A stretch of 64,000 nt of DNA from Candidatus Woesearchaeota archaeon (lineage in GTDB: Archaea > Nanobdellota > Nanobdellia > Woesearchaeales > DSVV01). Each line of letters opens with the position of its first letter. The stretch's first letter is position 1. A program made the position numbers and the translations under genes. Under the pieces are notes generated by a model. It was given only the letters and a program-made list of their open reading frames with translations. It had not been told where the DNA came from and searched no databases. Below, piece by piece: positions 15,925 through 38,284 of this stretch. The DNA is taken from contig JAGVYW010000003.1 in assembly GCA_018303075.1 (NCBI GenBank), positions 1,598-65,597 of the forward strand, given 5' to 3'.

Positions 15925-18900
15925 CTATCCATTTACTGGTAATTCCATCTGATTGCTGCTTAAAATAGCAGCTAATTGCGGTGAGATAATTGGTTCTATT
16001 GCTGGAACAAGTGCTGGATTTATTGGAATTGCCTGCAGTTGCTGTCTTATGCGAAGCTTTGATGTAAGATCTGAAAATTTATTATAAGGAATTCCATTTT
16101 CGTCTTCTGTCTTTGTAAATAAGTAAGTCAATGAACTTGTAGATATTGGAATCATATTACAGTAAATATCCTGATCTGCCTGAGCAATTTTAGTACAGTC
16201 AATATTTTGATTGAATATGCCGATAATTGGATTGAAATAAATTATTGCCGTAAAATAACGAAGCGAATGGCTTCCTGTCTCTCCAGAGCTAGGATCCCAT
16301 TTTCTTTCTGTAATTCCAAATATCAATTGGTTTGCTGCAATGTTTTTTAGCAGATAGAAATTATTGAAATCTGCAATCTCAGCAATTATATCAGAACCTT
16401 GAAAACTCTTTGATTTAAATGCATCAAGCTCTTTTTGACTTGAATGTAATCCGATTAATGTATTTGCGAATCCTTTCAATTGGCTGTTGTGTTTATTATA
16501 ATTCTCCTGTATATCTTTTAAATTATTTATACCATTCTTATTATAGATAATTGCCTTTAGCTTGTTGTTGTAATAAAGATGTTCTGAACATTTCTTGTAG
16601 ATACCATAACGGGAGCTGTCTTCTTCTTTTATATCACATTTAGCTGCATCCTCATCAAAGAAATCCCCGCTTTTTACAAAGCCAAGTGTATTGAATAATT
16701 CTGTTGGATCAAATGTGATTGAATCTTGTTCTGTGTTTTCTGATTCAACCTTATTAACTGTAACACCAAGATAGGTTTGATCTTTGACCTTTAAAATACA
16801 GAAACTATTGACTGCATCTTTGATAAGAATATTTGCAGCTTCTGTTTCTGCTGATATAGAATTGTAATTTAATGTTTGGTCAGCTGGAGCACAATGCAAT
16901 GTGAATTCATTGTCTCCTGCGATGTCTAACAATTGTATTGCTAATACTTTTGTCCTGCTTGACCATTCTGCATTGACAAGCTGGTTGTTCTTGTAGACTG
17001 GCTCGCAGAGATGATCCTTGTGAAAAAAGAATTCTTTGTTAGTGCAGAGAGAGATACCCCCAGATTTCAATTCGAGGTCTTCTGCATATTCTTCGAGATT
17101 AAGCGAACCTTCTTTGATTGTTGTATATTTTTGATCACATTGATCTTCATCATCATATGCTGCGCTTGGACAAGCACATGAGAATGATTCTGTGCAAAGA
17201 TTGCTGCCGTCTTGTTTTAATGTTTCCAATTCAATTGTGTCATTGTACCAGTTATATTTTGGTGTTGGTTCTTTCCATTCTCCACCTTTGCAGATGTAGA
17301 ACTTACCATCTCCTGTTGTTTCAGATGATACTGCTTCCCCTTCACTAACACAATTTGGTCCATCTTCATCTTCTGCAGGATTCCAGCAGGAGTTTGCAAA
17401 ACAACAACTTGAATAATCATAAGAATCTTTATCTACCCATGGAACTGTGGAGAGTTTCATTGGAATCTCTTCGAGCTCTAAGTTCTTTGCTTTTGAATCT
17501 GTAAGAATTAACTCTTCTGCGGGATAACCTAGCTTTACTGCTGTTTTAAGTGCTTCTTTTTCTTCATCGCTTAAAGTATCTGTTTCTTTAATGTTGTCTT
17601 CATTAAACACTAAAAAAGTATTATCTGGCAAACATGCAGAAATATATTTGTTTGTATTATCAATTGCAATTCTTTTTGCTTGGCAAGTATTGTAGTTTCG
17701 TTCAAGAGAGAATAAAGGTTCTTCTTGAGGTTCTAAAGCATCATTGCTTGTGATAAAATGAAATGCTGATGGAATAATAGGTGTTATAGTTGCTGTTTGT
17801 AATGCATTACAAGTCCAGATTTTTCCTTTGACTGCGTAGTAGCCTTGTTTTGAATTATCATCAATTGGATCATTGAATGGTTTTGCATAATCAATGTAAG
17901 TTGATTTGACACAAGCGCCGTTTGGAATCTTTAAAAGATTGCCGTCAATACTGTCATGTGTTGGATTTTCTTCATTATAAGTTATTTCTTTTCTTTCTTT
18001 TGTTTCGTAATTAAATTCCTGCATACAACAACGAGAACCTGTCCATCTGCCACTTAAGTAGAAATTACAAACATTATGAAGATAAGGATCGAATTTATTT
18101 TCTTCTTCTGGAGATTTAAGATCTTCCTTTACATATTCAGGATTTTGGCGGAGAACTGCGGTATCTTCAGATTCTATGGTGAAATCAATATCACTCGTTG
18201 AACTTGTAATTTTTGCAGCTTCATCGAGAGTTATCCATTCAAAAACATCTCCTTTGCCTTGATCAAAGTAGTGATTGCAATAGAGTGGTACTTTTTTCTC
18301 CCCTAATTTATATAAACCTAAATCTGTTGTTCCTAATCCGCGCAGTTTAACTTTGTTTTTAGTTCCAAAGTTTCCTTTATCATAATCTTTTCGAGGATAT
18401 GGGTTGCTTGTACAACGATATGCACCTGTTTCTGAATCAATTATTTGTATTGGTTCTCCATATTCTTTGTTATCTACACCCTCAACAATAGTTGGATATA
18501 AACAGAGTTTTTCTTGATTAGAATAATCTACTATTTCTGTTTCCTCAGGATGATTCAATGATATCTTTTGCTTGTTTTCGTTATAATTAATTACTTTATT
18601 TGTCAACCATATATAATCGTCACCACAGCATGCAACTTTTGCATTGTTGTTAAAATTAGTAATACTTCCAATTTTTTGATTATCCATATATGTACCAATA
18701 CATTGATTAGAATTCCCATCCCAATCTACTTGGTACATAAATCCTGTTTCTTCACCAAACATTACTGCAGTTCCTAAATATTCTTTTTGATATGTTTTAA
18801 CCTCTTTTGTATATGTAATCTCTGGATTAGACTGAGATTCAACTGTTGTTTGTGTTGCTTCACCTGATCTTCCTGATAAACTAAAAACTCTTGGAATCTG

Positions 18901-19581
18901 CTCATCTGGTTTTTTTCCTTCATTCTTTTTATACCATTCTTGGTCATTTCTAATGTAATATCTACAATGCCCATCATTTCTTTTTGCTTCAGAAATAGTA
19001 TTGTCATAGTTATCATTTTTCTTTGCTTCATAACTTATAAAAAGTTCTCTATAAGGTTCAGAATTAAATACACCTGATTTATCAAATGGAATATTGATTG
19101 ATGGTGGATTTGATGAAAAATCAGTCTTAAGAAACTCATTAATTTTCCCATCATAACCCTCTTTATCAGCATATGTTTTTCTAATTACAAATGGTTTTCC
19201 AACGTAAGATTTTTTTATATCCTTATCTTTATCAGACTGAAGCCCATAATAATCTGGATTAAAACAGATTATTCCTACTTCTAATCTTAATTTCGTATCA
19301 CCTTCATAAGATTCTGTTGCTCCAGAACTACTTGGCTGTTTATTTGGATCCAATTCACCTTCATTATAGTTTTGATCTGTCAGAATTATATCTGATTCTT
19401 GTGGGGAGATTTTATCACTTTTTTCATCACCCTCGACTGAATCATCTTCAATTTCTTCAGGAGGTTCATCTCCTTGTTCAGCAACAATCACTTTAGAAAG
19501 CACACTTATTAGTACTATAATTAGAACTATAAATATCAAATACTTGCTTGTATTCCCCTTTTCCATAAATATCCTAATCAA
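15925..19581 (-). CDS. large (1218 aa) secreted/anchored surface protein, Cys-containing, no recognisable enzymatic motif
   Basis: N-terminus MEKG|NTSKYLIFIVLIIVLISVL hydrophobic; acidic linker then large globular region with paired Cys. Confidence 0.6.
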   Translation of the reverse strand: MIRIFMEKGNTSKYLIFIVLIIVLISVLSKVIVAEQGDEPPEEIEDDSVEGDEKSDKISPQESDIILTDQNYNEGELDPNKQPSSSGATESYEGDTKLRLEVGIICFNPDYYGLQSDKDKDIKKSYVGKPFVIRKTYADKEGYDGKINEFLKTDFSSNPPSINIPFDKSGVFNSEPYRELFISYEAKKNDNYDNTISEAKRNDGHCRYYIRNDQEWYKKNEGKKPDEQIPRVFSLSGRSGEATQTTVESQSNPEITYTKEVKTYQKEYLGTAVMFGEETGFMYQVDWDGNSNQCIGTYMDNQKIGSITNFNNNAKVACCGDDYIWLTNKVINYNENKQKISLNHPEETEIVDYSNQEKLCLYPTIVEGVDNKEYGEPIQIIDSETGAYRCTSNPYPRKDYDKGNFGTKNKVKLRGLGTTDLGLYKLGEKKVPLYCNHYFDQGKGDVFEWITLDEAAKITSSTSDIDFTIESEDTAVLRQNPEYVKEDLKSPEEENKFDPYLHNVCNFYLSGRWTGSRCCMQEFNYETKERKEITYNEENPTHDSIDGNLLKIPNGACVKSTYIDYAKPFNDPIDDNSKQGYYAVKGKIWTCNALQTATITPIIPSAFHFITSNDALEPQEEPLFSLERNYNTCQAKRIAIDNTNKYISACLPDNTFLVFNEDNIKETDTLSDEEKEALKTAVKLGYPAEELILTDSKAKNLELEEIPMKLSTVPWVDKDSYDYSSCCFANSCWNPAEDEDGPNCVSEGEAVSSETTGDGKFYICKGGEWKEPTPKYNWYNDTIELETLKQDGSNLCTESFSCACPSAAYDDEDQCDQKYTTIKEGSLNLEEYAEDLELKSGGISLCTNKEFFFHKDHLCEPVYKNNQLVNAEWSSRTKVLAIQLLDIAGDNEFTLHCAPADQTLNYNSISAETEAANILIKDAVNSFCILKVKDQTYLGVTVNKVESENTEQDSITFDPTELFNTLGFVKSGDFFDEDAAKCDIKEEDSSRYGIYKKCSEHLYYNNKLKAIIYNKNGINNLKDIQENYNKHNSQLKGFANTLIGLHSSQKELDAFKSKSFQGSDIIAEIADFNNFYLLKNIAANQLIFGITERKWDPSSGETGSHSLRYFTAIIYFNPIIGIFNQNIDCTKIAQADQDIYCNMIPISTSSLTYLFTKTEDENGIPYNKFSDLTSKLRIRQQLQAIPINPALVPAIEPIISPQLAAILSSNQMELPVNG

Positions 19582-21732: not shown

Positions 21733-23007
21733 TTAAAGTAAACACTTCCAAAAATGAAAAGGCAACCTTAGTATCAATCCTTTTTTCTTTTTCTGAGAAC
21801 TCAGATTGACAAGATATGCTTTTTTCATAGGATATTCTTTTAGAAATGATTGTAAACCTAAGAAATCATCATTTTTCAGCATTTTTTTGTATTTTACTTC
21901 AATAGGGATTTGTTTTTGTTTTTCATCAATAATTATATCTACTTCATGCTTGTTTTTATCCTGCCAGAATTTTATCATTTCTGGATGTATGCCTGATTTT
22001 AGCAATTCTGTAATACAATATGCTTCAAAAAGAGTTCCTTGATCATGGCGAAGATGCAGCACTGTGAAATTATTAGTAAAATAGTTTCGTACACCATTGT
22101 CAATAAAATAAATCTTCGGAATCTTTACAAGTTCTTTATTTTTATTTGTGAAAAATGGCCGTACAACTGCAATAAGATATGTTTCTTTTATTATTTCAAT
22201 ATAATTTATCACTTCATTATAATCTAAGCTGCTCACTTGACAAATCTCTTCATATTTTATTTTTTGGCCATTATTAACTGCGATATATTCAATTAATTTC
22301 TTTACATTCATGATCTTATTAATATTTAAGTATTCCACCAAATCTTTTTTAATGTATAAATCAAAAATGCTTTCGAGCACAGCAATCTTTTCTTCTTTTT
22401 TGTTTTTTAATACTACTTCAGGATAGCCTCCAAAAATAAGAAACTCATTTAATAAATCATTGAGTTTTCCAATTGCTTGGAAAAGATTCTCACCTTTGAT
22501 AGAAACAACATTCTTCAAATGTTTTATTGCTTCTGCATCTTCTTTAAACCATAAGAATTCTTCAAAGTCCAAAGGATATATATTATTGATTATCTTCCTG
22601 CCCGCCAAAGATTCCTGAATTAACGATTTTATCTTTAGAGAAGAGGAACCTGATGCATATACTTTTACTGATGGAAGATTATCATACAAATTCTTCATAA
22701 TAATTGATATATCACCATAGCGTTGGAATTCATCCAAAAAGAGATAAAAATTTTCTTTCTTTTTCTCCTGAAATCCATTTATTTTCAACGTATTTAATAC
22801 ATTTTCATAAGTATTTACTTTCTCATAATTTGTGAAAATATCCAAATCCAAAAATAATCCTTTCTCTTTCTGATTTACACACAATTCTTCAAAAAGAGTT
22901 TTCAGTAATGTAGTCTTGCCTACTTGCCTTGCACCCAGTAAAAGAGATACTTTCCGTTCATTTTTTTGCTTCAGTAGATGTGCATATATTTTTCGCGGTT
23001 TTGCCAT
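21733..23007 (-). CDS. AAA-superfamily ATPase with C-terminal DUF4143-like domain
   Basis: Walker A LLLGARQVGKTTLLK, Walker B-like FLFLDEFQ; domain architecture typical of archaeal AAA_14/DUF4143 proteins. Confidence 0.6.
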   Translation of the reverse strand: MAKPRKIYAHLLKQKNERKVSLLLGARQVGKTTLLKTLFEELCVNQKEKGLFLDLDIFTNYEKVNTYENVLNTLKINGFQEKKKENFYLFLDEFQRYGDISIIMKNLYDNLPSVKVYASGSSSLKIKSLIQESLAGRKIINNIYPLDFEEFLWFKEDAEAIKHLKNVVSIKGENLFQAIGKLNDLLNEFLIFGGYPEVVLKNKKEEKIAVLESIFDLYIKKDLVEYLNINKIMNVKKLIEYIAVNNGQKIKYEEICQVSSLDYNEVINYIEIIKETYLIAVVRPFFTNKNKELVKIPKIYFIDNGVRNYFTNNFTVLHLRHDQGTLFEAYCITELLKSGIHPEMIKFWQDKNKHEVDIIIDEKQKQIPIEVKYKKMLKNDDFLGLQSFLKEYPMKKAYLVNLSSQKKKKGLILRLPFHFWKCLL

Positions 23008-25057: not shown

Positions 25058-25429
25058 CTACAGCTTAATAATCTGCAATCCGTTTATTCTCTCAAAATCT
25101 TTATCAAGAGTCAACAGTTCAACATCATGCACTAAACATGTTGCTGCAATAAGAATGTCAACTCTCCCAGTCATAATACCATGATTTATAAGATACTCCT
25201 CAATCTCTACACCCTTATAAGCAACTTTATCATCAATAGATAATATATGCACACTTCTTATAAATTGCATCAATATTTCTTTTTTGTTTGGATGCGCATC
25301 AACAAGAAGTTCATTAATAGTTAGCGCGCTAATTGCAGCTGAATGCAGTTGAATCTGTTGTTGGATCTCTTTGTATTTACCCCTACCTGAGAATAATTCA
25401 ATTATTGCTGAAGTATCAAGAATAATCAT
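25058..25429 (-). CDS. vapC: PIN-domain ribonuclease VapC (toxin)
   Basis: MIILDTSAIIELF N-terminus, conserved acidic residues; start overlaps stop of upstream antitoxin (ATGA-type junction at 25429). Confidence 0.7.
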   Translation of the reverse strand: MIILDTSAIIELFSGRGKYKEIQQQIQLHSAAISALTINELLVDAHPNKKEILMQFIRSVHILSIDDKVAYKGVEIEEYLINHGIMTGRVDILIAATCLVHDVELLTLDKDFERINGLQIIKL

Positions 25430-25683
25430 TATAATCTTTCTCTCATATTTTTAGAACGCTGAACAAATTCAATATTCATTTCTTCTCTTCTTTTTCTAAC
25501 TTTTTCTTTCCACTGTTTTGTTTCTGATTCACTCATCTTTAACGCTCCAGCAAATCTTGCAGCTGCACCTATCTTTTCTTTTGATAGCCTTAAAACTACA
25601 TCACTGAAACTTTCATCACCATATTTAACTGATTTTAACGCATTGTATGCTTCTTCTGTAATAGTTAATGATTTTATTACCAT
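25429..25683 (-). CDS. vapB: VapB-like antitoxin (84 aa)
   Basis: Small protein immediately upstream of and overlapping vapC; sequence MVIKSLTITEEAYNALKSV is antitoxin-like. Confidence 0.5.
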   Translation of the reverse strand: MVIKSLTITEEAYNALKSVKYGDESFSDVVLRLSKEKIGAAARFAGALKMSESETKQWKEKVRKRREEMNIEFVQRSKNMRERL

Positions 25684-25708: not shown

Positions 25709-26623
25709 TTAAATATATTGCTTGTTTTCTAATAACACACATGTCTTACAAACTGCTGTTGCACTTGGTTCTTTACAGTGATTACAATAGTTTACTTTTT
25801 TTTCATGCTTAATGGAGAGCTTCATTAATTTCTTCTTATTCTTTAAGAAGAGATTAATAATATTTTTCTTTGCGTCTTGGTGCTTTTGTTCATACTTATT
25901 AAGTAATTCTCCAATAACACCTCTGTATGCCTGCACAACATAAGGACATTCACCGTATTCAATGTTAAACTTCATCAGAAAAGAATATGCTGCAATCTGT
26001 TTTTCTGGAATAAAATATAATGGTTTTATCCTTGGAACAAACAAATCATCTTCAATAACACCTGTTTGAGGGCCCAAGCGAGCAGATAGTTGTGGAGTGC
26101 CTCTTAAAAGATTCATTATTATTGCTTGAGATTCATCGTCAAGATTGTGACCTGTTGCAAGCTTTGATGCAGAATAAATACGTGCGTATTTATTCAGTAA
26201 TGTTCTGCGAAATGCACCACATAAAGTACATGGTTTTGTGTTTTTATGTGTTGTTGCTAAGAATTTATCCAAAGATTTTCCAAAAGAATCCTTGTATGAA
26301 ACAATATTTAATGAGATTGCATGTTGTTTACAAAAATCGTTTACTGTTACTAATGTCTTATTACGATAACCAGCAATACCTTCGTCAATTGCAAGAGCTG
26401 CAAGAGTGAATGATAATTTTGGTTTAAGTTTATTAAGAATATATAACAAAGTTATACTGTCTTTTCCACCTGAAACAGCAACAACTATGTGATCATTTTT
26501 CTGGATAAGGCTGTGTCTCTTTATTGTTTTTTCAACTGTTTTTTCAATATACAATAAAAAATGTTGTTTACAAAATGTTGGATTAATGTATACAGCATTG
26601 TTTGTACATTTGGTGCAATGCAT
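25709..26623 (-). CDS. ncsA: tRNA 2-thiolation PP-loop ATPase NcsA/Ncs6/TtcA family
   Basis: PP-loop VAVSGGKDS; N-terminal zinc finger MHCTKCTNNAVYINPTFCKQH and C-terminal CNHCKEPSATAVCKTC; ORF-track start 26683 would overlap the SAMP gene by 58 bp; ATG at 26623 leaves a 2-bp gap. Confidence 0.7.
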   Translation of the reverse strand: MHCTKCTNNAVYINPTFCKQHFLLYIEKTVEKTIKRHSLIQKNDHIVVAVSGGKDSITLLYILNKLKPKLSFTLAALAIDEGIAGYRNKTLVTVNDFCKQHAISLNIVSYKDSFGKSLDKFLATTHKNTKPCTLCGAFRRTLLNKYARIYSASKLATGHNLDDESQAIIMNLLRGTPQLSARLGPQTGVIEDDLFVPRIKPLYFIPEKQIAAYSFLMKFNIEYGECPYVVQAYRGVIGELLNKYEQKHQDAKKNIINLFLKNKKKLMKLSIKHEKKVNYCNHCKEPSATAVCKTCVLLENKQYI

Positions 26624-26625
26624 TT

Positions 26626-26820
26626 TTACCCACCAGAAACTACTGAAAGAATTTTTACTGAATCTGAATTCTTGAGCTTGCAATCATTTGTAACTAACTC
26701 ATTGTTGACTGCAACAAGAACTGCTTCAGGATTTTGATTTAATTTTTTTAACAATCCATTAACTGTACCTGTAAATTGTAAGTTTATTATTTGATTTTTT
26801 CTTTCAATCAATATTTTCAT
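26626..26820 (-). CDS. ubiquitin-like small archaeal modifier/sulfur carrier (ThiS/MoaD/SAMP-like), C-terminal ...VVSGG
   Basis: 64-aa beta-grasp-sized protein ending in Gly-Gly directly before stop, sandwiched 1-2 bp between ThiI-like and NcsA genes. Confidence 0.65.
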   Translation of the reverse strand: MKILIERKNQIINLQFTGTVNGLLKKLNQNPEAVLVAVNNELVTNDCKLKNSDSVKILSVVSGG

Positions 26821-26821
26821 C

Positions 26822-27757
26822 TTATGCACCATCCGTAAATAGATGCAATTGATCATTTACTTCTGTATCATCTAATAATGCAATAGGATTCAACTGAACG
26901 ATCTGCTGATTAAATAGTTTTTCCTCTAAAAAATATGCACCAGTAACTATTGCAGGAATATTGTACTTTTCCATAAGCTGCAGTATCTGCTGAATATTTT
27001 TTTGTTTATTTTGTGCACTATAAATTGGTTCTGTTTTATAAATGATTGTATTGTCTAATACAGATTGATAGTTATCAAGTATTTGTTTCTCCCCGAAAAA
27101 TATAACCTTACAGCCACGCTTGAGCATTAATATTGCAGCAAGTATTGAACGTTTATCTTCAATAGATACTATAATAGTGCCTTCAATACCTACAGGCAGA
27201 CCACCAAATGCTACAACTTTGCTTGTAAATAAAAATGCTTTGTTCTCTAATAATTCAATACCTAAATCTAATTCAGCATGCTTAAGATTAACTTTTTTCT
27301 GAAATGTATTGACAACAAATTCACCTATTGCTTTGTCTAACTCAATCGATGGAATTGCATCTTTATCAATACGCTGTGTTGAAATACGAAAAGTTGTACA
27401 ATTCTTTAATTGTGCTGAAAAATAAGAAGTAATTGCTTGTTTTATATTGTTAATACTATCATCTATAACTATTGCAATGCTGTAAGAAGCAATACCAAAA
27501 ACATACCTTAATCTTCTTATCAATAGATTGTATTCGTCGAGAATACTATTATAATCATATGATATAGATTTATCAAATGATTTTAGATGCAACAAGATTC
27601 TTCCCCTAGGATTGCTTAAAGAGATATACTGTATAGTTAGTTTATTCAATAATTGTTTGATATTTTCCATCAATTGTTCCTCAAAAACAAATCTGTTTTT
27701 TCCCTTTGTAGCTATCTCTGCATATCTAATTATACAATAAACTTCATTTTTTGTCAT
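26822..27757 (-). CDS. THUMP-domain ThiI-like protein with degenerate PP-loop (SIEDKRS in place of SGGxDS)
   Basis: N-terminus IIRYAEIATKGKNRFVFEEQLMENIK matches ThiI/THUMP; downstream GTIIVSIEDKRSILAAILMLKRGCKVI aligns with ThiI PP-loop region but lacks SGG. Confidence 0.5.
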   Translation of the reverse strand: MTKNEVYCIIRYAEIATKGKNRFVFEEQLMENIKQLLNKLTIQYISLSNPRGRILLHLKSFDKSISYDYNSILDEYNLLIRRLRYVFGIASYSIAIVIDDSINNIKQAITSYFSAQLKNCTTFRISTQRIDKDAIPSIELDKAIGEFVVNTFQKKVNLKHAELDLGIELLENKAFLFTSKVVAFGGLPVGIEGTIIVSIEDKRSILAAILMLKRGCKVIFFGEKQILDNYQSVLDNTIIYKTEPIYSAQNKQKNIQQILQLMEKYNIPAIVTGAYFLEEKLFNQQIVQLNPIALLDDTEVNDQLHLFTDGA

Positions 27758-28005
27758 TTTATGATAAGGATTTTTTGCTTCTATTAAAAATATTGCGGAA
27801 AAACTGAGAAAAAGATTATTTTTTTCAGAAAAAGTGTTTATTCTTCCAAAATATCCGAAAAATATCCGAAAAACTCGCCGAGTGGTTGTAGATTAGTCGC
27901 TATTAGCTACTTGCCGATAACTACTCTCTAACTTACCACAGTATTTAAATATAACTTGTTATTTATAAAGCCTTTATATATAATTATTACTTGGGGTGTG
28001 ACATT

Positions 28006-28587
28006 ATGGCAAAGAAGAATATTGAAAAAACTGAAAAAATCGATAAAACAAAACGTGATATACAAGTTGTAAATATTGTAGTAAGTACATCATTAGAGCA
28101 TGATATCCCTTTAGAAAAAATGGCTGCTACATTGAGCAATACAGAATATAATCCTGAACAATTTCCAGGATTGGTGCTTCGTATACGAGAACCAAAAACA
28201 TCTGCATTAATATTCAGCTCTGGAAAGGTTGTTTGTACAGGAGCACGATCAATGGATAAGGTGGAAGAGTCTATCAAGAAGATTATCAAAAGTTTAGAGA
28301 AGATCAATGTCAAAATAACAGTAAAACCAAAAATCAATATCCAAAATATTGTTGCATCTGGTTCTGTTGGAATGGATCTAAACTTAAATGTTCTAGCAAT
28401 GAAATTAGAGAACACAGAATATGAACCTGAACAATTTCCAGGATTAGTCTATAAATTACCTCAAGCAAAAGCAACATTTCTATTGTTTAGTAATGGTAAA
28501 ATTGTCTGTACAGGAACAAAAAGCGAAGATGAAGTACATGTTGCAGTTGACAAATTGATTGAAAACTTGAGAAAAGTAAGAAAATAA
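28006..28587 (+). CDS. tbp: TATA-box binding protein
   Basis: Two direct repeats each with EQFPGLVxR...SGKVVCTG; unmistakable TBP. Confidence 0.95.
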   Translation: MAKKNIEKTEKIDKTKRDIQVVNIVVSTSLEHDIPLEKMAATLSNTEYNPEQFPGLVLRIREPKTSALIFSSGKVVCTGARSMDKVEESIKKIIKSLEKINVKITVKPKINIQNIVASGSVGMDLNLNVLAMKLENTEYEPEQFPGLVYKLPQAKATFLLFSNGKIVCTGTKSEDEVHVAVDKLIENLRKVRK

Positions 28588-28649
28588 AAATGAAAACTTT
28601 TCCATTTTTTTAATAATCTATTTAAAATGCAACAATATTCTTACTAATT

Positions 28650-30671
28650 ATGGAAGTAGCTGAACAAATAAGCAAGTTTCAAGAATTTCTGGAAATGCAT
28701 TATCATGCAAAATTACTAGAAATAGCACGATTAGGACAGAAGTTTATTGAGATTGATTTTGAAGAATTAAGCAAATTTTCTCCAGAATTAGTTGATGATT
28801 TAATAGAATACCCTGAAGAAACCATTAAAGCTTTTGAACTCTCTTGCAGCAATTTTGATCTCCCAAATGAAACAAAAGAGATTAGAATAAGAATATTTAA
28901 TCTAACTGCAGAGCAAAGAATTCTTATTAGAAATATTCGTTCAACACATATTGGAAAACTTATTTGGTTTGAAGGTGTTGTCAGGCAGAAGAGTGATGTA
29001 AGACCACAGGTTACCTCTGCACGATTTGAATGCCCTAGCTGCGGAAATATAATCACAGTATTACAACTAGATACAAAGTTTAAAGAACCAACACGCTGCG
29101 GCTGTGGAAGAAAAGGGAAATTCAGATTATTAACAAAAGAACTTGTTGATGCACAAGGTTTGGTACTTGAGGAATCCACAAAAGATCTAGATGGAGGGGA
29201 ACAACCAAAAAGAATCAATGTCTTCTTGAAAAATGATTTAGTTTCTCCAATATCTGAGAAAAGAACAAATCCTGGAAGTTCTGTTAGATTATCTGGGATT
29301 ATTAAAGAAGTACCAATCATATTAAAATCAGGAGGACAATCAACAAAATTTGACCTTATTGTTGAAGCAAATCATGTTGAAGCAATACAAGAAGATTATA
29401 CTAATATCAACATCTCAGAGGAAGAAGAAAAGAAAATACGAGAATTATCACAAGACCTAAAATTAATGGAAAAACTAACCCAGGCACTTGCTCCAGGAAT
29501 ATTTGGACATGATAGAATCAAAGAAGCTCTTTTGATGCAGTTTGCTGGAGGAGTGACTAAAACAAGAGATGATGGTGTAAAGACGAGAGGAGATATTCAC
29601 GTTCTTTTAATAGGAGACCCTGGTTCAGGAAAATCTCAGCTCCTTAAACGAGCATCTGTCGTTGCGCCTAAGTCAAGATACGTAAGCGGCAAGGGTACAT
29701 CCGGAGCAGGATTGACTGCTTCAGTTGTAAAAGATGAATTTCTCTCTGGATGGAGCCTAGAAGCAGGAGCAATTGTGCTTGCAAATCGCGGTGTATTGAT
29801 GATTGATGAATTAGATAAAATGAGCGATGATGACAGAAGTGCAATGCATGAAGCGCTTGAACAGCAAACAGTCTCTATATCCAAAGCAAATATCCAAGCA
29901 ACATTGCGATGTGAAACTACTGTGCTAGCGGCAGCAAATCCTAAATTTGGAAGATTTGATCCTTATGAAAATATTGCAAAACAAATAGATCTGCCTCCTG
30001 CATTAATCAACAGATTTGATCTTATCTTTACAATCAAAGATGTACCCAATGAAGAACGTGATGAGAGAATGGCAAAATTCATCCTAACAATGCATAAGGA
30101 GAAATTAACTGAAGAACCTGAAATTCCAACAGACTTACTTAGAAAATATCTTATCTATACACGACAAAAAATCTCTCCAATATTAACTGATGCTGCGCTT
30201 GATGAGCTTAAAGAATATTATGTTAAGATAAGATCAACAGGCACAAGCGAAGAATCTGCAATAAAATCAGTGCCAATATCTCCAAGACAATTGGAAGCAT
30301 TGATAAGACTTTCTGAAGCATCTGCTAAATTAAGATTGAGCGATAAGATCACAAAAAAGGATGCAAAAAAAGCTATTGCTATCTTAATGTATTGTTTAGA
30401 ACAAGTCGGATTAGATCCTGAAACTGGAAAGATAGATATTGATAAAATAACCTCTGGAATTACATCCTCTGAAAGAAGCAAGATTATAATTGTAAAAGAA
30501 ATTATCAATGAATTAGAAGTTAAGTTTGGAAAAATGATCCCTATTGAAGAAATTGTCAAGACAGCAGCTGAAAAGAATATTGATGCAGATAAAGTAGAAG
30601 AAACAATTGAAAAGCTAAAAAGAACAGGTGACTTGTTTGAACCAAAACCTGGAAAAGTGCAGAAGATCTAG
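28650..30671 (+). CDS. mcm: MCM replicative helicase
   Basis: Zinc finger CPSCGN..CGCG, Walker A IHVLLIGDPGSGKSQLLK, Walker B MIDELDKM, arginine finger region; 673 aa, no intein. Confidence 0.95.
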   Translation: MEVAEQISKFQEFLEMHYHAKLLEIARLGQKFIEIDFEELSKFSPELVDDLIEYPEETIKAFELSCSNFDLPNETKEIRIRIFNLTAEQRILIRNIRSTHIGKLIWFEGVVRQKSDVRPQVTSARFECPSCGNIITVLQLDTKFKEPTRCGCGRKGKFRLLTKELVDAQGLVLEESTKDLDGGEQPKRINVFLKNDLVSPISEKRTNPGSSVRLSGIIKEVPIILKSGGQSTKFDLIVEANHVEAIQEDYTNINISEEEEKKIRELSQDLKLMEKLTQALAPGIFGHDRIKEALLMQFAGGVTKTRDDGVKTRGDIHVLLIGDPGSGKSQLLKRASVVAPKSRYVSGKGTSGAGLTASVVKDEFLSGWSLEAGAIVLANRGVLMIDELDKMSDDDRSAMHEALEQQTVSISKANIQATLRCETTVLAAANPKFGRFDPYENIAKQIDLPPALINRFDLIFTIKDVPNEERDERMAKFILTMHKEKLTEEPEIPTDLLRKYLIYTRQKISPILTDAALDELKEYYVKIRSTGTSEESAIKSVPISPRQLEALIRLSEASAKLRLSDKITKKDAKKAIAILMYCLEQVGLDPETGKIDIDKITSGITSSERSKIIIVKEIINELEVKFGKMIPIEEIVKTAAEKNIDADKVEETIEKLKRTGDLFEPKPGKVQKI

Positions 30672-30749
30672 GATGAAAAGATTTAATTTTGTCAATTTTT
30701 ATGATTAGTTGTTAGTTATATTTTTAAATGAATAAGGATTTCTACTATT

Positions 30750-31433
30750 ATGGCGTCAAAAAGACAAGCTGCGTATATTATGAGCATTCATGATGTGTTA
30801 AAATTGCCATCCCTTTTTGAAGATAAAAATAATCTTCCAAAAGTAAATGTTGTAGGGATTGTTGTTTCTGTTGATATTGATCCACAAATAAGCACTGTTG
30901 TTGTAGATGATGGAACTTCTTCTATCGTATTGCGATTTTTTGAAATGCATGAACTATTGAATTCATTAACTATTGGAAATATTGTGAAAATAATAGGAAG
31001 TCCGAGATATTTACATAATGAGATATATGTTGTTCCTGAAATAATCAAAAAAATTGATAAGCATAAATGGATTGAATACAGAAATCTTGAGCTAAAAATA
31101 TTAAAGCCATTGTATGACTCATTATTACAAACACCATTGGTAGAACAACCTAAAGAAAATAATAACAATGATAAAATTACTGAAGAAACTGTCGTAGGAG
31201 ATATGATTGTAGAAGAAGAAGTTGTACAAAATGAAGAGATTAAGATTGAAAAAAGCGAGAATATCCTTGATAAAATATTAATAACTATAGCTAAACTTGA
31301 TACTGGAAAAGGAGCAGCATATGATGAACTTGTTTCTGCAATCAATCATCAAGATTGTGAAAAATTACTAAAGAAATTAATAGAGCAAGGCGAAATCTTT
31401 GAGGTAAAACCAGGAAGGATCAAGGTGCTGTAG
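30750..31433 (+). CDS. OB-fold plus C-terminal winged-helix protein, RPA32/Stn1-like ssDNA-binding subunit
   Basis: VNVVGIVVSV...VVVDDGTSSIVLRFFE OB-fold pattern; C-terminal ILITIAKLDTGKGAAYDELVSAI wH; directly downstream of mcm. Confidence 0.45.
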   Translation: MASKRQAAYIMSIHDVLKLPSLFEDKNNLPKVNVVGIVVSVDIDPQISTVVVDDGTSSIVLRFFEMHELLNSLTIGNIVKIIGSPRYLHNEIYVVPEIIKKIDKHKWIEYRNLELKILKPLYDSLLQTPLVEQPKENNNNDKITEETVVGDMIVEEEVVQNEEIKIEKSENILDKILITIAKLDTGKGAAYDELVSAINHQDCEKLLKKLIEQGEIFEVKPGRIKVL

Positions 31434-33208: not shown

Positions 33209-36200
33209 TTAAGGTAAGGATTCATTTTCATTCTGAGCAAGAGAACTAAACCATTTTCCCAAACCTTCTTGAACCTCTGCTTCTTTACCAAAAACACTTT
33301 CAATCCTTATTTTGAGAAGGCTTAATGTCTGTTTCAAATAAGGAGGGATGTTGAACTCTGCAGCTAAAGAAATACTTTTGTCAAGATATTTGACAACTGA
33401 GCCTTCACTTACTGTAAACAATAACTTACCTGAACATTTTGTGCACTTGCCTATCAAAGGAGGCCTGCGAAAGATCTCATTGCATTTTACACAGCGAAAA
33501 GCCTGCTGTGAAAATTTTCTAAGATTCCCTTTTGTATCTTTAAGAAAATGACGTTCAATCACTAATCTTGCAACATCTGTCTCATCAACTGCACGGATTA
33601 ATTTTGCTAACTCCATCTGACCATGTAATTTCTCATCCATTGAAGGCAATGCTTTATATGCTGAACATGCCACTCCTTGATTGATGTCAGAAGTATCATG
33701 TGTAAATCCCATCCCTTCATATTGTTTTTCAGTTCCAATCCTATGCTTAATCTGCTCAATCTTTACATCTCCTGCTGGCTTGTACTCAGCAGCTGCTTCA
33801 TAGAACTCAAGAGGATAAAACCAAGCAGTGTCTAACCCATGAGCTTGATCATCAACTTCTGAAGGATTTAATAATGATGTTAATACTAATGGAGCATCCA
33901 TTGTTTTTGCACCACGAGTGTTTGGCAGAAAATTGCTTGAAAAATTAAGCAAACAATCTAAAAGCATACTTACACTTGCTTCGTCACCATCACAGTCGCG
34001 TCTCAAAGATGCATGAAACAACGGATGCGCAAACATTGCCTGTGTTTTTGAAAAACCAATAATCCTTCCAACCATTCCTGAAGAGATGTGAGGAGCTAAT
34101 GCAAGAACTAACTGACCAACAAGATCTTGCTTTGAATTAAGATTATAATAAGAAGGTAGTTTATAAAAATCTTGCAATAAATCATCAATAAAGTTTGCAA
34201 CCCTAAATAATACTTCATATGATGTTTCATCCAATGCTTCCTTTGATGCTGGAAGAATAATATCTTGAGTCTTAATCTCAAGAACTTGATTTTCGTGTAT
34301 TAGCTCTTTCCCATTTATATCATGTGAGTAACCTAATTCTTTGAGTTTTTCTATTGAAGTAGCTATTTCTTTTGGTTTGAAATGAGTGATTGGCAGTTCT
34401 GACATGTCAAAACGAATTGTACCATCTTTATTAACATAGACATCATGTTTTGCACGAATAATCCCTTTGATAAGATTTTCAGGTATATGGTCTTTATTGC
34501 TTGTTCCACGTACACCTTTTATTAAATCTGGGTAATTTCTTGTCTGCAACCTTTTTAATGCTGAATTAATATATTCGTTGATATCAATCTCCTGCGATGT
34601 ATAAGTTTTTGCATTACCATGTACACATGATTCTTTCTCTATGACGCCACAGAGTTTACAAGAATATCTTTTTTCTGCAGTTGCATAACATTTATGACAT
34701 TTCTTATAAACTGTGTTCATATTGCATTGCACACAATAATAGATTGGAAAATCTGCATTTATCTTTCCAACGCCCATTGCAGATTGAAAACTCCTTAATC
34801 TTGCACCTTCTTCTCCTACTGGAAATAATACTTGTGGAGAACCATTTAGCTTACGCATCTTTGCTTTTTCTGGCCTGCCCATCCTTGCACCAATAAATGT
34901 TCCAGATTTATCCCTTATTCTTATTGAAAAAATATTGTTTATATTCTCTATCGTTGAGCTTGTTTCATCAAATGAGAATTTTGCAGAAGGACTGCAATAA
35001 TTATTTTTATACATTCCAAGAGTTGCAAGCATAGCTCGAGCATCTTCTTTTTCAATTACAATAAACTCATTATTTACAACTAAATGAGGCAATCCTATTA
35101 ACTCAAGTATTATTTTTAATCCACCATCAAAATTGAAAATAATCTTAATTATTTTGTTATCTTCTTGAATTATTTTTGCGCTGATTATATATTGAATCAA
35201 TTTACTTAATTGGTTTACAGTTATCAATCGCCAATGATAAGTGTAATAAGGATGTAATGGTATATCAAACTTTTCTGAAAGCATAAGTGCATCATTTGCT
35301 TTAATCGGAAAAAGCCTGTCATTTAACAGATTTTTAATAAGATCTTTAGAAACTCCTGAAAATTCAGACATCATCATTGCAATTGTCTCTGAATTATTCT
35401 CTGTATTGCAACTGCATTTTTCTCTTGCTGCTTTTTGAAGCTCTAACAACCACCATTCTTCATTATATCCACAAGGTACTAGTATGTGCCCATTTTCAGA
35501 AAAATCCCCATAACTAAATAAAATGTCACCCATAAATAAGATCTTATCAATATTTGGTAGATTGCTAACTGCAGCTTCAATTGTATTTATTCTTACAACT
35601 GAACTGTTTTTTAATCGAATGATTGGACCTTCAAGCTGATCACATGTTGTAATGGCAGAAGCCTTCCCTGGACGCTCCATCTTTAATTGTGTTGCAATTG
35701 CAATATATTTTCTTAATAAGTACATAGTTGCTGGATTAATTGCAGAAGCTGAAAATCCTGTTGTTCTTGCTCTTCCATAACGCAGACGAAAACCACCATC
35801 TCTCATAGGATATGTTAAGACAGGTCTTCCAGCAACTATATCTGCAATAAATGTATAATTTGGTGAAATCTTCTCTTTTTTTGTATCACCTGTTACTTTT
35901 TTTGCTTTTATTTGTTTTTGTAATCTGAGAAATTCATCTAGAAAATCCCATTCTAACTGCATCTCTTTGCCCCATTTCTCTAAACGTTTCCATATTTTTG
36001 CTGCTTTTTGTGCAAGTCCCTCTGCCATTACTAAGCAGATTCCACCACGAATCCTATTTGTTTCAATCCTTGGGATATCCTTAAAATTTGAAACTTCAAA
36101 TTTCTCTGTTGGATCACCATCAATCTGTATTGGTACATTTCTTGCAAGAAATTCTATCTCTTCTTGTGAAGGAAAATACTGCAGATTTGTTACACGTTCA

Positions 36201-36799
36201 TGATAATCAATTATCTCTGTCTTAAATCGTTTAATCTCATTTTCAGTAGGATCATATTTCGCATATCCCATCTTTACTCTAACATAATCTGTGATTAAAA
36301 GAGAAAATGCTGCTGCAGTTCCGCCAGCACCCCTGATCGGACCAGCATAACAAGGAGCAAAGTATTCTTCACCTGATGATGTTTTTTTAATCCGCAATTC
36401 AATAAATCCTTCTAAAGGAGCAGAAACAATCCCTCCTGTTTGATATGCAAATCCTGTTCTTATGCCTACTTCCATAGCTTCTTTTTTATCTTTAAAACTA
36501 CAAAACTTTTGTTCTGCAACTTCATGAGCAATAATTAAAGCTATTCTCCAATCTAAATGGGAATATAATTTTTCTAGTTCTAAGATCCTATTTGTTACAC
36601 CTGAACCTATTAATTGGGGTGCAACTACACTAATCAACCCTTCTACTCTTTCAGCCATATTTTTTGCCAATTTGATATCTACTTTTGGTTCTGGGTCAAA
36701 ATTTAATTGCCTTGCTGTTTGTGCAAGTTTATAACATTTTATTAGCTCTGCATCAATTGTTTGGAAATAATGCTGCATTTTTGCTGAACATACAACCAT
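33209..36799 (-). CDS. polD2: DNA polymerase D (PolD) large subunit DP2
   Basis: 1196 aa; catalytic DCDGDE, multiple CxxC zinc fingers; N-terminus from MQHYFQTIDAE (alt. start 36778) resembles Pyrococcus DP2. Confidence 0.9.
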   Translation of the reverse strand: MVVCSAKMQHYFQTIDAELIKCYKLAQTARQLNFDPEPKVDIKLAKNMAERVEGLISVVAPQLIGSGVTNRILELEKLYSHLDWRIALIIAHEVAEQKFCSFKDKKEAMEVGIRTGFAYQTGGIVSAPLEGFIELRIKKTSSGEEYFAPCYAGPIRGAGGTAAAFSLLITDYVRVKMGYAKYDPTENEIKRFKTEIIDYHERVTNLQYFPSQEEIEFLARNVPIQIDGDPTEKFEVSNFKDIPRIETNRIRGGICLVMAEGLAQKAAKIWKRLEKWGKEMQLEWDFLDEFLRLQKQIKAKKVTGDTKKEKISPNYTFIADIVAGRPVLTYPMRDGGFRLRYGRARTTGFSASAINPATMYLLRKYIAIATQLKMERPGKASAITTCDQLEGPIIRLKNSSVVRINTIEAAVSNLPNIDKILFMGDILFSYGDFSENGHILVPCGYNEEWWLLELQKAAREKCSCNTENNSETIAMMMSEFSGVSKDLIKNLLNDRLFPIKANDALMLSEKFDIPLHPYYTYHWRLITVNQLSKLIQYIISAKIIQEDNKIIKIIFNFDGGLKIILELIGLPHLVVNNEFIVIEKEDARAMLATLGMYKNNYCSPSAKFSFDETSSTIENINNIFSIRIRDKSGTFIGARMGRPEKAKMRKLNGSPQVLFPVGEEGARLRSFQSAMGVGKINADFPIYYCVQCNMNTVYKKCHKCYATAEKRYSCKLCGVIEKESCVHGNAKTYTSQEIDINEYINSALKRLQTRNYPDLIKGVRGTSNKDHIPENLIKGIIRAKHDVYVNKDGTIRFDMSELPITHFKPKEIATSIEKLKELGYSHDINGKELIHENQVLEIKTQDIILPASKEALDETSYEVLFRVANFIDDLLQDFYKLPSYYNLNSKQDLVGQLVLALAPHISSGMVGRIIGFSKTQAMFAHPLFHASLRRDCDGDEASVSMLLDCLLNFSSNFLPNTRGAKTMDAPLVLTSLLNPSEVDDQAHGLDTAWFYPLEFYEAAAEYKPAGDVKIEQIKHRIGTEKQYEGMGFTHDTSDINQGVACSAYKALPSMDEKLHGQMELAKLIRAVDETDVARLVIERHFLKDTKGNLRKFSQQAFRCVKCNEIFRRPPLIGKCTKCSGKLLFTVSEGSVVKYLDKSISLAAEFNIPPYLKQTLSLLKIRIESVFGKEAEVQEGLGKWFSSLAQNENESLP

Positions 36800-36808
36800 G
36801 TATTCACC

Positions 36809-38281
36809 TTAAAATTTTAAAATTCTTACTTCTCTTGTTTGCAGATTAATTATTGGTACTCTGCAAGGCTCAGGATGATGGCCCATCTTTTCCTGAAATT
36901 TTGTTGTGTCCTGCCAACAAGAACTTGAAACTAATGTAATATTTCTATAATTCGAAGCTGAAACCTTATGAAGATGACCTGTACAAAATAGATCTGGCAC
37001 CATTGTGATAACAGCTGGATCAAACTCTGTCTCTGGAATATATAATGTTGCTGAATGTGTTGGAGCAAGATGACGTTTTTGAAGCAAAAACTTCATAACC
37101 AAATCTGCCCTGTCATATCCCCCATTGTTTCTAACCTCATCAATATTTGCAATGAAATAATCAAAACTATAACCGTGATACATCAAAACATCTATTCCTG
37201 CAAATGTTTCTGTTGCAGCTATGTTTACTATTGCAGGATTGCTTACAAAAAAAGCATTTTTTAGCTGATATAATTCTTTTGCAAACTCTTTGTCGAGCTG
37301 AGGCTGAGGCTCGCATAATCTTACAGCATCGTGATTTCCAGGACAAATAATCATACTTATATGATTTGGTACTTTCTCCAGCAGTTTTGCCAATGCTATA
37401 TATTGCTGTGTTATATCAGTTATTAGTAATTCTTTTTCTTGCGCTGGATAAATACCTACGCCATCAACTAAATCACCTACTATAAAGAGATATTTTATCT
37501 TTTCTGCTATTTTTTTGTATGTTTCATTTCCTATTTCGCTATTGAGAAAACAAATAAATTTCTTAAACTGTTCTTCTAAAAAGAAACGTGAACCTGTATG
37601 AATATCTGATATAAATACAGCATATTCTTCTTCAGGAGCTTTTTTTAATTCTTTGCTTAAAGGAATGTCAGGCAAGAATAAAGAAGAGATGTAAATTACT
37701 TTATTTTTTGGAAGCCCAACAATACCTATAATCTCATCCAATACTAGATTTTTTGCAAGTTCATACATCTCTGGCTTGTTTTTATTTATTATCGCTATGA
37801 TCTCTCCAGATGGGTCTTCTAATTTAATAACAATATTATTGTTTTTTGTAATTGTCTTTTCAATGATTATACCAATAATCGCAATCTGTTCTTTTTCTGT
37901 CTTTGAAAATATTTTGTTAATAGAAATAGCTGCTGATAATTCCATACGATTTAATAGAATCTTTTTTATCTGCTGGTAACGTTTATTATAATAAGTAATA
38001 AAATCTGCTACTGTTCTTTTTTTTGATTGTTCTGTGTAACTTACAACTATTTTTACTTTTCTTTCTTGTGATTTTTGATTGATTGCTGAGTTGTTTTCTT
38101 GAAGATATAAATTAATCTCATTCAGCAGAACTTCTTCATCTTGAGGTTTTGTAGAAAAATTATTATAAAAATTATCAAAATTGAAATTTTCAGGTATTGC
38201 ATTAAGAACTTGTTCAGTAACTAAAACTTCATTTTCTAATAATGATTTTACAAGTTTTGATCTTTGTTGAGAGAGCATCAT
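36809..38281 (-). CDS. polD1: DNA polymerase D small subunit DP1 (calcineurin-like phosphoesterase exonuclease)
   Basis: CPGNHD and GHxH phosphoesterase motifs, N-terminal OB region; 10-bp from DP2. Confidence 0.85.
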   Translation of the reverse strand: MMLSQQRSKLVKSLLENEVLVTEQVLNAIPENFNFDNFYNNFSTKPQDEEVLLNEINLYLQENNSAINQKSQERKVKIVVSYTEQSKKRTVADFITYYNKRYQQIKKILLNRMELSAAISINKIFSKTEKEQIAIIGIIIEKTITKNNNIVIKLEDPSGEIIAIINKNKPEMYELAKNLVLDEIIGIVGLPKNKVIYISSLFLPDIPLSKELKKAPEEEYAVFISDIHTGSRFFLEEQFKKFICFLNSEIGNETYKKIAEKIKYLFIVGDLVDGVGIYPAQEKELLITDITQQYIALAKLLEKVPNHISMIICPGNHDAVRLCEPQPQLDKEFAKELYQLKNAFFVSNPAIVNIAATETFAGIDVLMYHGYSFDYFIANIDEVRNNGGYDRADLVMKFLLQKRHLAPTHSATLYIPETEFDPAVITMVPDLFCTGHLHKVSASNYRNITLVSSSCWQDTTKFQEKMGHHPEPCRVPIINLQTREVRILKF

Positions 38282-38284
38282 AAA

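Follow-up and report, generated by a model that had tools for sequence, protein, structure and literature searches.

Why would a putative operon for tRNA thiolation be headed by a ThiI-like protein that appears to have lost the means of thiolation? The question is raised by a stretch of 64,000 nucleotides from contig JAGVYW010000003.1 of a Candidatus Woesearchaeota archaeon (assembly GCA_018303075.1), to which, at its full length, we refer as the window. The locus under study consists of three genes on its minus strand, which we call A, B, and C:

26822..27757, minus strand: gene A, 311 amino acids (aa), predicted to be a PH1313-type pseudo-ThiI with a ferredoxin-like domain at its N-terminus (NFLD), a THUMP domain, and a shrunken Rossmann-like domain without a PP-loop
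26626..26820, minus strand: gene B, 64 aa, starting with MKILIE and ending in VVSGG, a predicted beta-grasp sulfur carrier of the ThiS/TtuB/SAMP2 type
25709..26623, minus strand: gene C, 304 aa from MHCTKC, a predicted [4Fe-4S] PP-loop tRNA 2-thiouridine synthetase of the TtuA/Ncs6 family, with two zinc fingers

A preliminary description of this DNA had reported three tightly packed genes with gaps of 1–2 bp, and the spacers are indeed 1 nucleotide (nt) between A and B (...GCA TAA g ATG...) and 2 nt between B and C (...GGT GGG TAA aa ATG...). The window has a low GC content, about 31%, and the nearest relatives of the operon genes are annotated as Candidatus Woesearchaeota, members of the DPANN archaea. 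Relatives with 76% and 42% identity have their genes in the same A-B-C order. Compared with the 76%-identical relative, the ratio of nonsynonymous to synonymous substitution rates (dN/dS) is 0.20 for gene A, 0.19 for gene B, and 0.14 for gene C, and all three genes are under purifying selection. Because the order recurs at these distances and the ratios are this low, the arrangement is more than chance.

Is gene A still a thiolase? Its domains can be placed as follows:

27479..27736, minus strand: NFLD, residues 8–93 (Pfam PF22025, ThiI_fer, 4e-16), bearing the RYAEIATKGKNR loop, which binds the acceptor stem in ThiI
27224..27457, minus strand: THUMP domain, residues 101–178 (Pfam PF02926, 4.2e-9)
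27146..27166, minus strand: dead PP-loop position SIEDKRS, residues 198–204, where ThiI has SGGIDS, from an alignment with five full-length ThiI sequences and 75 short forms
26825..27205, minus strand: degenerate Rossmann-like C-terminal domain, residues 185–311, from the alignment

Pfam finds no match in gene A to PF02568, the ThiI catalytic domain, and the ThiI model TIGR00342 gives 119.2 bits against a cutoff of 264.5, covering only positions 2–201 of the 373 in the profile. In the alignment, the SGGIDS column of the five full-length ThiI sequences reads IEDKR-S in gene A, and the motif S[GA]G.[DE]S occurs in none of the 75 short forms. In place of SGGIDS these have an acidic stretch, often EDxxS or ENxxS, that is shorter by one residue. 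Three further elements are absent from the short forms: the insert bearing the archaeal CxxC, the GQVASQT motif, and the C-terminal stretch in which the catalytic or cluster cysteine lies. What the short forms retain, besides their NFLD loop, is the GGLPVG linker, KRGC, and LRPL. The C-terminal domain of gene A keeps GGLPVG, KRGC, and (L/N)RP(L/I), and the region that would hold the equivalent of E. coli C344 is missing. The preliminary description had taken gene A for a THUMP/ThiI-like protein with SIEDKRS in place of SGGxDS, unlike the standard ThiI and probably not adenylating. Pfam and the alignment agree on each of these points, and the PP-loop, the CxxC, the C-terminal cysteine region, and the rhodanese domain are all lost. 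To judge from its sequence, gene A can neither adenylate uridine nor bind ATP as a PP-loop does, and it has no means of holding an Fe-S cluster or persulfide. These comparisons support gene A as a ThiI-like protein from which the adenylating PP-loop and the catalytic and Fe-S cysteines have apparently been lost, while the NFLD/THUMP module, presumed to bind tRNA, has been kept.

Gene A is not a decaying copy, as a pseudogene is ruled out by the dN/dS of 0.20 and by the large size of the family. The THUMP domain has the lowest dN/dS of the three domains, 0.146, and the dead C-terminal domain has 0.233. Among 56 family members, the NFLD loop RYxEIxxKGxNR is invariant or nearly so: E14, K18, and N21 are invariant, and R11, Y12, G19, and R22 are conserved in at least 90%. 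The RNA-binding role of the Arg10–Lys19 loop has been shown in TmThiI (PMC4041423). A homologue search with gene A ranks dozens of proteins of 245–312 aa ahead of any full-length ThiI. The dead C-terminal domain alone, searched among 1.84 billion representatives, matches at least 124 clusters (50% identity level). Most of these measure 195–313 aa, the exceptions being two long repetitive proteins and a handful of shorter fragments, and none has the usual ThiI length of about 360–400 aa. Thus, gene A is not the oddity of one genome for which it had been taken, but belongs to a large DPANN family of pseudo-ThiI proteins of 245–312 aa, and this family has a solved relative.

That relative is PH1313 of P. 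horikoshii (PDB 1VBK), whose structure has been known since 2005 and which is the closest solved structure to gene A both by sequence (phmmer, 3.8e-29, 26% identity) and by fold. The AlphaFold2 model of gene A has a mean predicted local distance difference test score (pLDDT) of 90.8. With this model as query, Foldseek aligns 1VBK over the full length (E = 3.6e-26, template modelling (TM) scores of 0.80/0.81), with a target coverage above that of any ThiI. The two proteins are of the same length class, 307 and 311 aa, and share the three-domain fold; at the PP-loop position, PH1313 has HDELS where gene A has EDKRS, the same acidic replacement, one residue shorter. They differ in that PH1313 has a valine in place of the Cys of KRGC, which is nearly invariant in the DPANN family, and in that the P. 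furiosus PH1313 orthologue has no ThiS or thiolase neighbour, whereas gene A heads a ThiS-thiolase operon. A ThiS/SAMP2 gene lies 3 kb from the P. furiosus orthologue and belongs to an AOR cluster. Conserved ThiI residues are missing from PH1313, and it has no confirmed activity (PMC9957541, Hori's 2023 review); elsewhere it has been termed a truncated TtuI (PMC9825150). Thus, gene A falls within the PH1313 type, a family of known structure without an assigned function. NCBI and UniRef name the Thermococcales orthologues of PH1313 (P0241–P0247 in our set) 'tRNA 4-thiouridine(8) synthase ThiI'. Since every catalytic motif is missing from these sequences, this is probably a systematic misannotation.

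The ThiI/TtuI structures (2C5S, 4KR6/4KR7) have in common with gene A the NFLD, the THUMP domain, the GGLPVG linker, the KRG helix, and the LRPL strand, and as fold matches to the gene A query they reach TM scores of about 0.72–0.77. Some gene A relatives also share the IscS neighbourhood of ThiI. Unlike ThiI and TtuI, gene A is without the PP-loop, the catalytic and Fe-S cysteines, GQVASQT, and the rhodanese domain, and its C-terminal domain is about 70–90 residues shorter than that of ThiI. ThiI is a homodimer joined by its PP-loop pyrophosphatase (PPase) domains, and a single tRNA is served by the THUMP domain of one subunit together with the active site of its partner (PMC4041423).

What do the two other genes contribute? 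Gene B matches the Pfam ThiS family (PF02597) at 4.7e-10, with 40.3 bits against a cutoff of 22.5, and its best solved relatives in a PDB search are TtuB (3.3e-4) and SAMP2 (7.1e-4). It falls below the cutoff of every specific model: 22.5 vs. 70 bits for SAMP2 (NF041919), 24.8 vs. 27 for PF21965, 30.6 vs. 37.45 for thiS (TIGR01683), and 23.5 vs. 66 for moaD. The earlier reading of gene B as a 64-aa ThiS-like protein ending in GG agrees with the Pfam score and the VVSGG terminus, and the scores support it as a probable sulfur carrier of the ThiS/TtuB/SAMP2 type.

Gene C has a PP-loop of the kind that gene A lacks:

26456..26473, minus strand: intact PP-loop SGGKDS of gene C, residues 51–56, from the translation, aligning to the SGGKDS of PhTtuA, MmNcsA, and TtTtuA

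Pfam ATP_bind_3 matches gene C at 3.5e-17, and TIGR00269 gives 72.4 bits against a cutoff of 62.75. Its CTLC and the Cys of GECPY align to the cluster cysteines of PhTtuA, and it has an N-terminal (CxxC...C..H) and a C-terminal (CNHC...CKTC) zinc-finger motif. These features support gene C as a thiolase of the TtuA/Ncs6 family that is, by its motifs, intact. Assignment to NcsA or TtuA was tried with NCBIfam, PDB phmmer, and a neighbour-joining tree, and the answers are ambiguous. The NCBIfam models give 2.8e-62 and 210.7 bits for NcsA (cutoff 500) and 4.4e-51 and 173.8 bits for TtuA (cutoff 450). In the PDB, PhTtuA (9e-47, 162.8 bits) comes ahead of MmNcsA (1.9e-44, 155.2 bits). The IDEGIAGYR motif (IDEGIxGYR in the window clade) and the loop length resemble MmNcsA, and the tree, with three references rebuilt from PDB alignments, does not settle where gene C belongs. 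For most of the other thiolases with a linked dead ThiI, the TtuA model gives the higher score; for the window clade, the NcsA model does. On these scores, gene C cannot be assigned to either the TtuA (U54) or the NcsA (U34) orthologue group, and because both scores are far below their cutoffs, we leave the choice between U34 and U54 as target undecided. The preliminary name NcsA/Ncs6 holds as far as the intact SGGKDS, the two zinc fingers, and the TtuA/Ncs6 family go, but the specific NcsA label is not established. Likewise, the suggested ubiquitin-like sulfur relay for 2-thiouridine or 2-thiocytidine has its carrier and its thiolase in the operon, but 2-thiocytidine has no specific support, the TtcA model giving gene C 109 bits.

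A relay of this kind would need further members, among them the E1 (UbaA-type) enzyme whose presence the preliminary description had proposed to check. The search for it was run within the 64-kb window, where no ThiF/UbaA was found. Phmmer queries from other loci, with ThiF from L172 (the loci that we gathered are numbered with an L), were compared with the six-frame translation of the window and found no ThiF, IscS, or IscU, and phmmer likewise found no rhodanese, second ThiI, NcsA, or ThiS, or MtaB-like gene there. Pfam scans of 20 of the approximately 66 window open reading frames (ORFs) gave no sulfur-relay domain, ThiF included, and a tRNA scan found no tRNA genes in the window.

Is the company that gene A keeps typical of its family? 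We gathered 168 ThiI-family loci by one genome scan, one metagenome scan, and direct look-ups; 36 have a complete short form (34 of them non-redundant) and 132 a full-length ThiI. A gene of the TtuA/NcsA family lies directly downstream on the same strand at 19 of the 36 short-form loci (17 of the 34 non-redundant ones), compared with just 2 of the 132 full-length ThiI loci (Fisher's test, p = 2.6e-13, for loci that are phylogenetically non-independent). The short-form and thiolase genes often overlap, by 26–98 nt. In the window clade, as at L004 and L011, the two are separated by a 64-aa ThiS ending in GG, and in L011 there is also a rhodanese gene between the ThiS and the thiolase. Three close homologues of gene C were found on other contigs, and two of them have no THUMP or ThiS neighbour, so that, seen from the thiolase side, the linkage is not universal. 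IscS-IscU lies directly upstream of the dead ThiI at five loci, and IscS alone at one more. An intein with a LAGLIDADG homing-endonuclease domain interrupts the IscU (NifU_N) gene that lies upstream of the dead ThiI at L001:4484-5998.

A clade of short forms of 245–263 aa has methylthiotransferases of the MiaB/MtaB family downstream instead, and three of the five complete ones are without a TRAM domain. These three are genes of 346–365 aa with UPF0004 and radical SAM domains, just downstream of dead ThiI proteins of 245–257 aa:

L087:5771-6814: TRAM-less MiaB/MtaB-family gene
L088:7008-8048: TRAM-less MiaB/MtaB-family gene
L012:6750-7847: TRAM-less MiaB/MtaB-family gene

The MtaB-like relatives in L002 and L096 retain a TRAM-like tail. 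Many TtuA-like neighbours of dead ThiI are without the N-terminal zinc finger, whereas gene C retains its own. The rule that the catalytic neighbour always lacks an RNA-binding module of its own was considered and holds only in part, with TRAM missing in three of five cases and the zinc finger of gene C present.

A different kind of neighbour was seen in Palaeococcus ferrophilus (L170:6001-7517, LANF01000019.1). There, a 311-aa PH1313 orthologue with LSGPNS at the PP-loop position is followed after 14 nt by a stand-alone ThiI catalytic domain of 188 aa with SGGIDS, CVLCK, GDSIGQVASQT, and ECWC. The pair looks like a naturally split ThiI, of which the second ORF is apparently live. Querying all loci with the Palaeococcus sequence found three more stand-alone ThiI PP-loop proteins, of 208–210 aa, which PF02568 matches end to end with 180–201 bits:

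L001:2151-2777, minus strand: stand-alone ThiI PP-loop protein, with SQGIDS
L003:3094-3720, minus strand: stand-alone ThiI PP-loop protein, with SGGIDS
L008:1330-1962, minus strand: stand-alone ThiI PP-loop protein, with SGGIDS

All three have the CxxC, GQVASQT, and a C-terminal Cys. The loci are of the Woesearchaeota type, and the three genes belong to IscS-IscU or SufBC clusters at a distance of 2.3–4.7 kb from the dead ThiI. At L172, a locus with a relative of gene C, the order is ThiF, an 81-aa gene, a stand-alone ThiI domain, ThiS, and a TtuA/NcsA gene. A small protein of 81–88 aa is encoded directly upstream of the stand-alone domain both there (L172:2450-2695, plus strand) and at L003:3717-3983 (minus strand); the two match each other with E of about 1e-10 between otherwise unrelated loci, and their sole Pfam match is a weak one to DUF3378. 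The partner of the dead ThiI may therefore be a stand-alone ThiI domain rather than gene C.

What, then, is the function of gene A? Given the domain content, the loss of catalytic motifs, the purifying selection, the fold, and the conserved neighbourhood, we infer a tRNA-docking subunit. Our preferred proposal, held with slightly more confidence than doubt, is that gene A is a non-catalytic subunit that docks tRNA in trans for a live enzyme, with gene C as its local partner. The locus would be a co-transcribed tRNA-thiolation module, in which gene A would hold the tRNA through its NFLD and THUMP domains. It would pair with a separate live sulfur-inserting enzyme, probably through its dead PP-loop domain, the counterpart of the ThiI dimerisation surface, and the heteromer would recreate the cross-subunit geometry of the ThiI homodimer. 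Gene C, which appears to be the sole live enzyme in the operon, is the candidate partner. Action in trans is favoured by the Palaeococcus pair and by the many TtuA-like neighbours without an N-terminal zinc finger. The sulfur would be given by the thiocarboxylated GG end of gene B, once an E1 whose gene lies outside the window has activated it. The preliminary description had suggested for the THUMP protein no more than an RNA-binding or targeting role, and with catalysis apparently lost and the NFLD/THUMP module kept, this is the best-supported reading of gene A.

Several observations weigh against a partnership of genes A and C. There is no direct evidence of an A–C contact, no fusion of the dead domain to a thiolase occurs among its matches from the 1.84 billion representatives, and PH1313 crystallised as a homodimer (PMC9957541). 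No gene for a sulfur-inserting enzyme lies downstream at 7 of the 34 non-redundant loci (L013, L050, L085, L092, L094, L119, L126), nor is there a thiolase beside the P. furiosus orthologue. A homologue of Rpp30, the p30 subunit of RNase P, lies downstream of the dead ThiI at 19 of the 34, including some without a thiolase. The linkage may reflect shared regulation of tRNA maturation or inherited DPANN synteny rather than a complex; since tRNA-maturation genes and sulfur genes form one conserved block here, a physical A–C complex cannot be proved by adjacency alone. Gene C has its full zinc-finger set and may need no adaptor. Finally, the distance that THUMP domains normally measure runs from the CCA end to positions 6–12 or 54/55, and a U34 target, as expected of an NcsA-like gene C, would be geometrically awkward. 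The THUMP geometry would be better suited to U54; Pus10, which has a THUMP domain, modifies positions 54/55 (PMC9957541).

Other explanations compete with this proposal. The strongest of them, which we regard as possible though clearly less probable than the docking of tRNA for gene C, is that gene A is the tRNA-binding subunit of a two-gene synthetase for 4-thiouridine at position 8 (s4U8), whose catalytic ThiI PP-loop domain, of about 190–217 aa, would be encoded outside the window. The place of gene A before ThiS and TtuA/NcsA genes would then reflect a shared sulfur supply and not a partnership with gene C. This agrees with the stand-alone PF02568 proteins near the dead ThiI in L001, L003, and L008, with the live domain 14 nt downstream of the Palaeococcus orthologue, and with the gene order of L172. 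Since the ThiI homodimer is held together by its PPase domains, a heterodimer of a THUMP/pseudo-PPase chain and a bare live PPase would be a natural minimal unit, and it corresponds exactly to the smallest working unit within the ThiI dimer (PMC4041423). IscS directly upstream of the dead ThiI, moreover, mirrors many full-length ThiI loci. The pairing of NifZ with ThiI is known from Bacillus. Yet no stand-alone ThiI domain is found in the 64-kb window or in the available loci of the closest relatives, L081 and L083, and one lies within about 6 kb at just 3 of 34 DPANN loci, whereas the linkage to TtuA/NcsA genes is far tighter, often with overlapping genes. The MtaB-linked clade would also go unexplained. 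The two-gene s4U8 synthetase and the adaptor for gene C are not mutually exclusive. A generalisation that would cover both is that PH1313-type pseudo-ThiI proteins are trans-acting docking subunits that plug into different live sulfur-inserting enzymes. The candidate partners would be the stand-alone ThiI domains, the often zinc-finger-less TtuA/NcsA-type thiolases, and the sometimes TRAM-less MtaB-like enzymes. We put this forward as a speculation, about as likely as one throw in four to prove right.

Gene A might instead work with no enzyme partner at all, as a homodimeric tRNA binder (a chaperone, for instance, or a CCA-end sensor) kept in the array for co-regulation. The dimer in the PH1313 crystal, the retention of RNase P p30 in the array even at thiolase-less loci, and the seven loci and P. 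furiosus without a thiolase neighbour would all be in line with this, but we consider it improbable. The neighbours are strongly enriched for sulfur-insertion genes (TtuA/NcsA, MtaB-like, ThiI domain, IscS/IscU, ThiS, rhodanese), and the dead PPase domain, the dimerisation surface of ThiI, is retained under purifying selection. Most improbable of all is that gene A is still a thiolase or other enzyme whose degenerate domain binds nucleotide or sulfur in a non-canonical way, perhaps with the Cys of KRGC. This residue, C216, is 96% conserved in the short family and variable in full-length ThiI, and NCBI calls the Thermococcales orthologues s4U8 synthases. However, the PP-loop, the CxxC with the third Cys, GQVASQT, and the region of the E. 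coli C344 equivalent are all missing, PH1313 has its valine at the KRGC position, and no activity of PH1313 has been found (PMC9957541).

The surroundings of the operon contain the following features:

27782..27790, minus strand: candidate archaeal TATA box TTTTTAATA, read from the sequence, about 29 nt upstream of the gene A ATG
25058..25683, minus strand: VapB-like antitoxin (84 aa) and PIN-domain VapC (123 aa), between gene C and RNase P p30, with VAPB_antitox and PIN annotated on L081
24376..25038, minus strand: RNase P subunit p30 (Pfam RNase_P_p30), a conserved downstream member of the same gene array
27991..31433, plus strand, and 33209..39493, minus strand: replication/transcription cluster around the operon, with TBP, MCM, an OB-fold protein, a 1196-aa ORF, a PolD small-subunit-like protein (DNA_pol_E_B/Metallophos), and a 402-aa ORF
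21733..23007, minus strand: AAA_14/DUF4143 ATPase
7472..13615 and 15925..19581, both minus strand: two very large ORFs of 2047 and 1218 aa with N-terminal hydrophobic segments, probably surface proteins
46618..47655, plus strand: Trm5/TYW2-type tRNA methyltransferase
58282..58839, plus strand: stand-alone Cas4-like PD-(D/E)XK nuclease, with no CRISPR array noticed

The position of the candidate TATA box would imply a nearly leaderless operon transcript. No terminator-like site was found on the minus strand between gene A and Rpp30 by a scan of the sigma-70/terminator type, which is not applicable to archaea. The insertion of VapB/VapC between the thiolase and RNase P p30 is also present in the 76%-identical relative, L081, and absent from L083. 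In L001, L081, L083, and L085, too, the dead ThiI has TBP and MCM upstream of it in divergent orientation. Large surface proteins are common in DPANN archaea.

The pairing of ThiS with a thiolase (PMC2948915) and the fold of the pseudo-ThiI (1VBK) were already known. In the searchable literature, no pseudo-ThiI is described as heading thiolation operons or standing beside stand-alone ThiI domains, nor is the docking hypothesis. The conserved neighbourhoods give the orphan PH1313 family a concrete, testable hypothesis, that of a pseudoenzyme lending tRNA binding to a separate thiolase, and orthologues are present in cultivable species of Pyrococcus, Thermococcus, and Palaeococcus. If the docking role of gene A is correct, it would add a sixth functional class of THUMP protein and would show genome-reduced DPANN archaea assembling tRNA-thiolation enzymes from separate parts. 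If the general docking subunit were also to hold, tRNA thiolation in DPANN archaea and some Thermococcales would depend on a split, modular machinery supplied by IscS/IscU and ThiS.

How does this arrangement compare with known systems? In the eukaryotic thiolation of U34, the live PP-loop thiolase Ncs6/Ctu1 works with Ncs2/Ctu2, a paralogous subunit with a degenerate PP-loop, and gene A, if the proposal holds, would be a prokaryotic case of a dead PP-loop subunit with a live one. Ncs2/Ctu2 lacks a THUMP domain, and its paralogue is Ncs6 rather than ThiI. The TtuA-TtuB system of Thermus and Pyrococcus and the NcsA-SAMP2 system of Haloferax and Methanococcus share with genes B and C the defining motifs and the adjacent arrangement of ThiS and thiolase, which in archaea was already noted by Makarova and Koonin in 2010 (PMC2948915). 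Unlike the operon in the window, they have no described THUMP or pseudo-ThiI component. The closest functional precedent is Tan1/THUMPD1 with Kre33/NAT10, which forms N4-acetylcytidine at position 12 (ac4C12) and in which a non-catalytic THUMP protein binds tRNA for a separate enzyme (PMC9957541). The chemistry is unrelated, Tan1 is without a pseudoenzyme domain, and the partnership at this locus is only proposed, but the division of labour between Tan1 and Kre33 is the one that we suggest for gene A and its live partner.

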